NCBI GenBank assembly: GCA_963977015.1 | Contig: CAXBMO010000009.1 | Span: forward strand, 32,001 to 96,000 | Direction: 5' to 3' | Length of the DNA stretch: 64,000 bases | Source of the DNA: an uncultured bacterium | GTDB taxonomy: Bacteria > Verrucomicrobiota > Verrucomicrobiia > Verrucomicrobiales > DEV007 | Shown here: piece after piece, positions 28,379-30,248 of the stretch | How positions within the stretch are numbered: position 1 is the stretch's first letter | Layout: the number at the start of each line of letters is the position of its first letter | Program-made: the position numbers and the translations under genes | The notes under the pieces: generated by a model | Seen by the model: the letters and a program-made list of their open reading frames with translations, nothing else | What the model was told of the DNA's origin: nothing | The model's database searches: none

Positions 28379-28544
28379 TTTTCGCTTCCCTTTTGATGAA
28401 TTACCGTGAGGATCACGTCTGTCCAGACAAGCAGCCGACAACTGAATCCTAAGATTCGGAGTTGCTTTGAAGAACACTCTAACTATGAAACGTCAGTCCG
28501 AGTTGGACATTGACATCTCCATAACAACTTGATTTAGTTGCGCC

Positions 28545-29072
28545 GTGCTCAAGCAAATTATCAACCAAGATCCTGCAGGGTCCAAGCCGCCACCAGCGCC
28601 TGCGCCAGAGCCAGCTCCGGCACCCGCTGCCTACGCCGAACCTGCACCGCAAGCCCAAACCGTACAACAACCGTCTACAACTGCCAGCCTGATGAGTTCC
28701 AGTAAAAATATCTTGTCGAATGATGTCGAAATCGTCGGAAATCTAAAATTCTCTCACGATTTGATCATTGATGGGAAAATCGAAGGTGAAGTTAATTCAG
28801 ATGGCAACCTGACCGTTGGCGAAAACGCCAAGGTCAAAGGGGAAATCAAAACGAAATCCGTGACGGTTTTCGGCAAGGTTGAAGGAAACATTACGGTTAC
28901 CGACCGCTGCGAGCTGAAATCCAACGCCGAATTGGTTGGAGACATCCGCGCTGGAACACTTTCTATCGAAGAGGGAGCTGCCTTCATGGGAGCTTCAACC
29001 GTTGGCGCTGCCGCCAAAGCATCCACACCTCCAGGAGGGGGATTGCCAAAGCCACCAGCACCACCTCAGTAA
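28545..29072 (+). CDS. Bactofilin (polymer-forming cytoskeletal protein) with Pro-rich tails
   Basis: DVEIVGNL...LIIDGKIEGEV...GENAKVKGEI...V.GKVEGNI...GDI...IEEGA.F.G. Confidence 0.93.
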   Translation: MLKQIINQDPAGSKPPPAPAPEPAPAPAAYAEPAPQAQTVQQPSTTASLMSSSKNILSNDVEIVGNLKFSHDLIIDGKIEGEVNSDGNLTVGENAKVKGEIKTKSVTVFGKVEGNITVTDRCELKSNAELVGDIRAGTLSIEEGAAFMGASTVGAAAKASTPPGGGLPKPPAPPQ

Positions 29073-29111
29073 TTTCAGGAGCCGCAAGGCTCTTACCTCC
29101 CGCTTTTCAGT

Positions 29112-30248
29112 ACGGACACGTCAAAAACAGCGTCGAACAAGAATTTCGTCAAGGCCGTCTGCCCCCATTGTGGGGCAGACCAACTTGAGCCTTCGATCGC
29201 TGTTTCTACTTTCTGCAAGAACTGCGGAGAGCATTTCAAGCTGACGCCTCCCCCCAAACGTTCCTTTGGGTTTGGGATCTTCGGAAGCCGTCAGGATAAG
29301 TCGCCCTTCCAACCCGCCGTTGATCGACCGGTCAGTCAGACCGAGTCCCTGACCAACGCCCCGTCCAAATCAGATTCCGGCGATGAATTGGAGTCTGATG
29401 AAGACAATCACGACGATTTCAACCAAACCGCTGATGGCGTGGAATGGCATGAGGCAGATGAGTTCGTGCCGCCACCACAACCGCCTCCCCGGCCTCTGCC
29501 CTCCCCTCCACCAATTCGCCAGAATGAAGGGGACGAAGTGGAAATCGATGGACAGCGTTTTGTCGAAGTCGAAGCCTACACCACGGTAGAAACTGCCGGG
29601 GCTCCTTTCACTCCGAAAAAGCCTGATCCCAAGGATCGGAAAATTCTCTGTGTCGGCTGTCGCGAGACTCTGTTTGTCAGCAAGCACGCGACATCGACGA
29701 TTTGCCCCCATTGCAGCGAATACTGCAGTTTGGAAAACTTCACCATCGCCAATCACCGGCGGGAGAACATCCGGACCCGGGGCAATGTGGCGATCCAACG
29801 CAAGGCCTCACTCACCGCCAGCGAAGTCATTTGCGATAACCTGAAAGTCTACGGAAAGATCTCCGGGAAAATCGATTGCACAGGAGACGCCTTCTTCCAT
29901 TGCTCTGGGAAAGTTGTGGGGAGTCTTCGCTGCAAGCATTTGATCATTCACAAGATCTGCAACCTCACGTTCCTGCCGGGAATTCACGCCGAAACGGCGG
30001 AGATTCACGGCGAAGTCAAAGGTGACATCATCTGCGACGGGAAGATCAAGATCACGAAAACCGCTACGGTCATTGGCGATTGCACCGCCCCGACGGTCGT
30101 TCTCGAAGATGGAGGTAACCTTTGCGGTCAGATGCGCTTCATGAAGCCTGACCAGGAGATGATGGCGGAATACGCCCGCCGTGCTCAGGAGGCACATGAC
30201 GAACTTTTTGACGAGGAAACGGAAGACGTCGCCGACTCGGAGGAGTAA
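29112..30248 (+). CDS. Bactofilin with two zinc ribbons; start non-canonical or uncertain (ACG 29112 proposed; first canonical start TTG 29388)
   Basis: Frame open from 29073; CPHC-x14-CKNC at 29160-29225, CVGC-x14-CPHC at about 29648-29713, then tandem bactofilin repeats. Confidence 0.8.
   Translation, partial: TDTSKTASNKNFVKAVCPHCGADQLEPSIAVSTFCKNCGEHFKLTPPPKRSFGFGIFGSRQDKSPFQPAVDRPVSQTESLTNAPSKSDSGDELESDEDNHDDFNQTADGVEWHEADEFVPPPQPPPRPLPSPPPIRQNEGDEVEIDGQRFVEVEAYTTVETAGAPFTPKKPDPKDRKILCVGCRETLFVSKHATSTICPHCSEYCSLENFTIANHRRENIRTRGNVAIQRKASLTASEVICDNLKVYGKISGKIDCTGDAFFHCSGKVVGSLRCKHLIIHKICNLTFLPGIHAETAEIHGEVKGDIICDGKIKITKTATVIGDCTAPTVVLEDGGNLCGQMRFMKPDQEMMAEYARRAQEAHDELFDEETEDVADSEE

Follow-up and report, generated by a model that had tools for sequence, protein, structure and literature searches.

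Introduction

The described start codons closest to the one reported here are those of Escherichia coli infC, which encodes IF3 and starts at AUU or AUC, and pcnB, which starts at AUU (10.1101/063800, PMC5499595). In each case, a phylogenetically conserved non-canonical codon, one mismatch away from AUG, opens a single gene in an otherwise canonical genome. In Deinococcus, dnaA starts at ATC and rpsL at CTG (PMC2830850), lineage-conserved starts that were overlooked by gene finders and proven by N-terminal proteomics. As for ACG, a survey of 79 replicons had none among its annotated starts (10.1101/063800); the same source places it in the class of codons yielding 0.1-1% of AUG in E. coli and describes ACG-started GFP made in this species, mostly with an N-terminal Met. 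In E. coli, ribosome profiling has picked up ACG for very short sORFs (PMC11796252). Bacterial geneticists commonly change a start codon to ACG in order to inactivate it, as in a Synechocystis preprint. Our limited literature search, which left most subscription journals uncovered, found no natural ACG start of a conserved bacterial gene.

Eukaryotic and viral ACG starts are known, among them that of AAV VP2, in which the weak start keeps the minor subunit of a polymeric assembly scarce. In plant chloroplasts, psbL, ndhD and rpl2 display a genomic ACG at the homologous start position, which C-to-U editing of the mRNA makes an AUG (PMC9845219).

The gene studied here encodes a bactofilin. The bactofilins BacA/BacB of Caulobacter, BacA/BacD of Hyphomonas and TtBac of Thermus share a beta-helical domain (10.1101/617639, PMC10945521, PMC12448750), paralogs co-polymerise in the species studied (10.1101/617639, PMC10945521), and the consensus of the N-terminal membrane-targeting peptide is MFSKKKK (PMC12448750). 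The same limited search returned no paper joining "bactofilin" with "zinc ribbon", with Verrucomicrobia or with start codon. Here we analyze a 64,000-nucleotide stretch of DNA (the window) from a marine bacterium, which the names of its relatives place in the Verrucomicrobiota, order Verrucomicrobiales. It contains a bactofilin operon, the second gene of which is probably translated from an ACG by direct decoding.

Results

The first gene of the operon encodes a bactofilin matching Pfam PF04519 (E 5e-28, 97.6 bits, for a curated cut-off of 27.9), and the features of the locus are listed in Table 1. As the initial annotation had pointed out, the frame closed by the TAA of gene 1 stays open for the next 391 codons, up to TAA 30246-30248, and reads as a CxxC-x14-CxxC peptide that has no canonical start ahead of it. 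Between TTG 29043 and CTG 29159, no frame contains an NTG, and the first in-frame ATG, GTG or TTG is TTG 29388, downstream of ribbon 1. The near-cognates present upstream of the first cysteine codon of the ribbon (Cys1) in the window are ACG 29112, ACG 29118, AAG 29139 and AAG 29151; the two ACG codons had been noticed initially, together with an AGGAG (29077-29081) that ends 30 nt upstream of ACG 29112. The public record of the gene 2 product holds the 286-aa form from TTG 29388 only. Ahead of gene 1, the four genus genomes barely differ in a TTGACA and in the 20 nt upstream of the GTG (28506-28547); a promoter scan gave no match on the + strand. If this stretch is a promoter, the long form of gene 1 may be leaderless.

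Table 1. Features of the bactofilin locus (positions in the window)
Feature	Coordinates	Strand	Evidence and remarks
Gene 1, bactofilin, long form of 175 aa	28545..29072	+	GTG start, M-L-K-Q-I-I; stop TAA 29070-29072
In-frame ATG within gene 1, probable start of a 126-aa short form	28692..28694	+	Conserved Met in orthologs
Untranslated 39-nt spacer, gene 1 stop to ACG	29073..29111	+	Spacer comparison, fold prediction
Putative start codon ACG of gene 2, 16 codons upstream of Cys1	29112..29114	+	Conservation in relatives
Gene 2 from the putative start, 378 aa	29112..30248	+	Ribbon 1, disordered linker, ribbon 2, long predicted beta-helix, C-terminal helix
Zinc ribbon 1, CxxC-x14-CxxC	29160..29225	+	Cys invariant; synonymous-dominated change
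Zinc ribbon 2, CxxC-x14-CxxC	29649..29714	+	Invariant Cys; PF23547 match
Two tandem PF04519 matches, one long predicted beta-helix	29736..30134	+	Pfam: 29736-29954 and 29982-30134

Ribbon 1 had been judged very likely coding, and comparison with its orthologs strengthens that view. Its four cysteines are invariant in 25/25 aligned orthologs and, over its 28 codons, all six pairs of genus genomes display 12-20 synonymous vs 0-4 non-synonymous codon differences. This pattern of change marks ribbon 1 as coding and under selection, although there is no canonical start upstream of it. While Pfam zinc-ribbon matches to ribbon 1 are weak (E 0.06-0.9), an AlphaFold model gives it a pLDDT of 82-92 across model residues 1-40. 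Ribbon 2 matches PF23547 with an E of 7.5e-4, under the cut-off of that family. The bactofilin region, which scores 71 bits against PF04519 (cut-off 27.9), is modeled as all-strand with a pLDDT of 92-98. Searched with Foldseek, the gene 2 model retrieved TtBac 6rib (probability 0.96, E 0.34) and BacA 2n3d (0.91, E 0.40), and nothing at E <= 0.001. In our preferred reading, gene 2 encodes a double-zinc-ribbon bactofilin of 378 aa that is initiated at ACG 29112 and has been shortened to 286 aa in databases; in congeners, gene 2 has been annotated from unrelated downstream codons, one of them within ribbon 1. In small host-associated genomes of the order, from family f2, three loci (L024, L026 and L030) encode a shorter ortholog in which a single ribbon was found.

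Ribbon 1 was recovered in 137 of the 139 genomes tried, 94 of them from the family of the window, in a set that leaves out Akkermansia-like single-ribbon matches and some further matches. We assigned each genome to a start class by a fixed rule, searching the open frame from 6 to 30 codons upstream of Cys1 for ATG first, then for GTG, then for TTG. This gave ATG in 19 genomes, GTG in 71, TTG in 16 and none in 31; ordinary genes of the window genome start with ATG in 181/202 cases. In all four genomes of the window genus (g1), ACG occupies the codon at -16 from Cys1, hereafter the slot. ACG 29112 is the only invariant codon in the open stretch that the genus shares upstream of ribbon 1, codon 29118 being ACG in only two of the four. 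The slot is likewise ACG in genus g11 (at -18/-19, 6/6), in g6 (at -17, 5/6) and g36 (1/1), where the flanking codons differ, and in g3 (2/2), g5 (2/2), g40 (3/3) and g39 (1/1), counts that overstate independence since the genomes are related, and for slots assigned after inspection of the data. Thirteen of these genomes have no ATG, GTG or TTG at all upstream of Cys1, and an ACG 14-19 codons upstream of Cys1 occurs in 17/31 genomes of the "none" class vs 7/71 of the GTG class. The slot ACG is kept as a triplet beyond synonymous expectation in g1, g11 and g6 (4/4, 6/6 and 5/6), since none of the 24 ACG-containing all-Thr columns of the same two genes is all-ACG (g1, g11 and g6 plus g36). Genome-wide, 983 of 2401 internal Thr ACG codons are kept as ACG between the window genome (G000) and its congener G001. 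The pairs in g3 and g5, with 55% and 66% of fourfold columns invariant, are too close to inform.

Some ACG users display a canonical alternative beside the slot: GTG at -19 with ACG at -16 in g40 (3/3), and TTG at -22 in G001, ATG at -13 in G122, TTG at -27 in g3, TTG at -10 in g5 and GTG at -5 in G137. We regard g1, g11, g6 and g36 as the firm ACG cases. G010, which is sister to g1, is without ACG and has an ATG at -4, and GTG is found at -4 in G100. In G114 (g6, locus L074), the slot is TCG in a frame that is open from the gene 1 stop, which may be an error, a loss, a sign of another start or a hint of editing. A genome-collection scan contributed zero further genomes of the window genus, and the one locus in a metagenome scan that is identical to the window was left out of independent counts.

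In genera g2, g15 and g18 and in family f5, the slot is occupied by GTG in 65 genomes, TTG in 8 and ATG in 8 (n=81). The GTG/TTG/ATG-Phe of the sister genera stands at -13 to -17, the position of the ACG slot, homology here meaning ungapped distance to Cys1, as the N-terminal peptides themselves align poorly. In these sister genera, the slot codon is mostly followed by Phe-Gly/Arg-Lys, yielding N-termini of the M-F-G-K type. Because these peptides are close to the MFSKKKK consensus, the slot is likely to be the true N-terminus, independently of the ACG question. Family f4 has a second conserved non-canonical start of gene 2, a CTG at -8 in 10/10 genomes of two genera (loci L018, L021, L241, L244-L247, L254 and L255). 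Considering the ATG, GTG and TTG classes together with the ACG and CTG slots, the family thus appears to avoid ATG for gene 2 by several routes. A tree was built for 80 of the 137 genomes, after thinning g2 and g30 and removing incomplete rows. It puts the ACG users in two clades, each with its own support, and in one of these the GTG/TTG genera g15, g18 and g2 are nested among ACG users. Both one ancient origin of ACG and repeated origins would fit this tree, the deep backbone of which is weak.

The unusual start looks gene-specific. A screen of 477 ortholog pairs, comparing 1.54 of about 8.5 Mb of G001 with the whole window genome, flagged 16 pairs, of which gene 2 is the only one with a conserved domain lacking a canonical start; the others look like leaders in front of an ATG/GTG that aligns, like frames broken in one of the assemblies or like shadow frames. 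A second screen found gene 2 alone to have a shared ACG, with no convincing ATG/ACG swap among the 17 pairs listed. Although both screens are blind to short extensions, a lineage-wide relaxed start rule is unsupported, gene 2 being the sole convincing case in the 477 pairs.

The sequence at the TAA and the ACG appears reliable. Contigs from three of four runs, belonging to two studies, span 29070-29114 without a letter change there, all of them at low depth and with one run possibly being the source sample of the window itself. The run X1 contig (28901-29236) has 0 differences from the window. The X2 contig (28300-29358) has six, none past 29012, so X2 is probably another strain. The X4 contig (28920-29132) has 0, the ACG lying 18 letters from its end, and in run X3 positions 29070-29114 are uncovered. 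The initial suggestion of an assembly error can be discarded, as contigs of two studies agree and the ACG recurs in the three further species of the genus. That of a recent ATG>ACG mutation can be discarded too, since ACG is kept across the genus and in other genera. ACG initiation, another option raised at the outset, is in turn strongly supported, and at 29112 specifically; the relatives are not all ATG at this codon.

How would the ribosome use such a codon? The ordinary initiator fMet-tRNA (anticodon CAU) would decode ACG 29112 despite a middle-position A:C mismatch, aided by pairing between A37 of this tRNA and the U at -1 (29111). The base upstream of the slot ACG is U in 16/24 genomes and never G, while U at -1 is found at 324 of 3283 internal ACG codons (10%), 21% of ATG starts and 14/81 canonical slots. 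U(-1):A37 pairing raises initiation in E. coli (PMC10018350), and we therefore suggest that the extra pair could offset the middle mismatch. The unstructured, G-poor start region, devoid of a Shine-Dalgarno (SD) sequence, might help as well. The predicted folding energy around ACG 29112 is -4.0 kcal/mol, compared to medians of -4.5 for true starts and -9.5 for internal ACG codons; the start-context score of g1 is moderate, at the 51st-89th percentile of internal ACG codons, and that of g5 is poor. An SD-like word precedes only 13/181 ordinary starts of the window genome, the 16S tail of which is standard. Because SD sequences are so rare, and because the AGGAG is 30 nt away and paired in a small predicted hairpin of the spacer (29077-29094), it is not a ribosome-binding site; it is not kept in congeners either. 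Translational coupling via overlap is ruled out by spacers of 25-194 nt. A CCTCC (29096-29100), identical to the anti-SD word of the 16S, is found 5-16 nt upstream of the ACG in 4/4 genus genomes; it precedes just 2/181 ordinary starts, and other ACG genera have not kept it in this position.

Initiator tRNAs follow a rule of three G:C pairs in the anticodon stem. In that of the window genome (contig C2, near 80297-80371), A29:U41 replaces the first of these, G29:C41. We rejected this as an ACG-specific trait, as it is shared by all 73 matches listed, in 71/121 genomes of the family, GTG users included, for a search pattern that gave no match in g5, g6 and g36. An initiator-type tRNA with the anticodon CGU was sought among the two tRNA-Thr(CGT) genes of the window genome, and by inspection neither is of that type. 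On one contig of this genome, about 18 divergent tRNA genes, including a tRNA-Ile(TAT), are packed into 3 kb, and this dense array is probably part of a mobile element. The window genome has one IF3 gene (infC, contig C30, locus L120), with no ATG, GTG or TTG at the N-terminus by inspection. ATA/ATC candidates lie upstream of its basic N-terminal stretch, as expected for infC. IF3-dependent tuning would be a possible extra layer of control. The gene 2 yield could be very low, unless the lineage reads ACG better than E. coli.

Several other explanations have to be weighed against direct decoding of the ACG. Readthrough of TAA 29070 would produce a 567-aa fusion, for which the continuous frames of the window are suggestive, and the two genes are in frame without an intervening stop in 3/25 genomes of the ACG group and 20/128 overall. 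However, the frame and spacer comparison that the initial annotation had itself proposed contradicts it. The stop-to-ACG spacer measures 39, 25, 26 and 39 nt in the four genus genomes, with G001 and G002 out of frame and G003 having a second in-frame TAA two codons upstream of the ACG, i.e., with one codon only in between. The three relative frames of the genes are distributed 55/33/40 among the 128 genomes with both genes parsed, and 10/7/8 among the 25 of the ACG group, in which gene 1 ends at TAG (10), TGA (8) or TAA (7). With a varying frame, all three stops in use, and congeners out of frame or with a second stop, we reject readthrough as having next to no probability; that the spacer is in frame with both genes in the window is apparently chance. 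It is extremely unlikely that gene 2 starts at TTG 29388, with ribbon 1 an untranslated relic, or that the ACG stems from an error or from a disabling mutation of recent date. The 286-aa form of the public records and the weakness of ACG in E. coli (10.1101/063800) would agree with such a scenario, but ribbon 1 changes almost only synonymously, congeners are annotated from different and unrelated codons downstream, one of them within ribbon 1, and ACG recurs in independent contigs and many species.

Ribbon 1 might instead be translated from another codon (ACG 29118, AAG 29139 or AAG 29151) or from lineage-specific starts, the slot ACG being a conserved Thr or an RNA element. This would account for G114, which is without ACG, for the conserved canonical alternatives in g40, g3 and g5, and for G010 and G137, which could start 4-5 codons upstream of Cys1. 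We nevertheless consider it unlikely, as no other near-cognate is common to the four congeners, frame conservation stops at the ACG, and the third base of a conserved Thr codon should vary, as it does in the 24 control columns. C-to-U editing of the mRNA into an AUG, gating a cytoskeletal subunit after transcription as in plant organelles, would explain why the slot holds ACG rather than a better-tolerated ATH or CTG, and the lone TCG of G114 would be edited to UUG. Although there is the chloroplast precedent, such editing has not been observed in bacteria according to PMC9845219. Moreover, the genera share no sequence or structure near the ACG by which a guide protein could recognize it, and the CTG, ATT, GTG or TTG at the slot in other lineages points to weak starts in general, all of which makes editing very unlikely. 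Searches for PF14432 (DYW) and PF13041 (PPR_2) gave no match in the window genome, which is 95% complete, nor in any control genome. In g11 and g3, the slot ACG is often found in a TACGAA context, A-rich +4/+5 positions being common at ordinary starts too. TACGAA resembles the motif of bacterial mRNA editing by TadA, but an A-to-I change here would abolish a start instead of creating one.

Discussion

Translation of gene 2 from ACG 29112, which we consider probable, would make it a separate gene of the bactofilin operon. As with infC and pcnB, its non-canonical start is phylogenetically conserved, restricted to a single gene of an otherwise canonical genome and one mismatch away from AUG, and on the three sequence tests of the infC/pcnB/dnaA type of start, it appears to fall within that class. 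However, the mismatch is at the middle position rather than the third, there is no Shine-Dalgarno sequence and, in contrast to infC, the product is a cytoskeletal subunit that does not evidently feed back on initiation. Like the Deinococcus starts, it is lineage-conserved and was overlooked by gene finders, although those were proven by proteomics while ours is inferred from sequence. The Deinococcus codons, ATC and CTG, are on the start list of NCBI table 11. The AAV VP2 start operates through eukaryotic scanning in one nested frame, whereas gene 2, which may share its role in stoichiometry, would be a separate downstream bacterial cistron. The chloroplast genes share a genomic ACG at the homologous start position but need an editing machinery that has not been described for bacteria. 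As for the protein, a beta-helical domain like that of known bactofilins is predicted, and a putative membrane-targeting N-terminal peptide as in these proteins is seen in gene 1 and in gene 2 of the sister genera. In contrast to known bactofilins, gene 2 combines two zinc ribbons with a predicted helix of double length, and the ACG-started N-terminus of the genus, M-D-T-S-K, is without the hydrophobic doublet.

What might a weak start be for? We see about an even chance that it keeps the gene 2 product, as a large accessory subunit, far below the plain bactofilin forms. Gene 1 starts at GTG in 93 and at ATG in 27 of 120 parsed orthologs, 97 of which have an internal Met at most eight codons upstream of the domain. 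Furthermore, a stand-alone bactofilin paralog on contig C17 starts at the Met equivalent to 28692, and databases list the gene 1 product at both lengths. This suggests that gene 1 makes long membrane-anchored and short isoforms. BacM reportedly has two start sites, which is an analogy, no description having been found in the literature searched. With two conserved starts in gene 1 and a paralog that begins at the internal Met, one mRNA may therefore yield three products, from a graded set of ATG 28692, GTG 28545 and ACG 29112, in decreasing order of strength. Non-AUG starts need not mean low expression (PMC5499595).

A terminator-like intergenic hairpin is found in 46/51 genomes of the clade in which GTG/TTG replaces ACG (vs 32/204 shuffles) and in 1/25 ACG genomes (vs 4/100 shuffles). 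It is as if the hairpin had replaced the weak ACG as a means of damping gene 2, in a swap that counts as a single evolutionary event. Family f5, with its GTG slot, displays such a hairpin in 0/24 genomes. Where the hairpin is present, it may just as well indicate a separate promoter for gene 2.

An ACG start would explain why databases truncate this family of zinc-ribbon bactofilins and hide a whole domain, ACG being a codon that bacterial gene finders reject. If true, a natural ACG start across several genera adds a middle-position mismatch to the list of bacterial starts and offers a tractable case for start choice in SD-less bacteria and for the question whether the composition of a cytoskeletal polymer depends on the strength of start codons. 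One operon would provide a natural series, in which the same homologous site holds ATG, GTG, TTG, CTG or ACG and a terminator between the genes is either present or absent.
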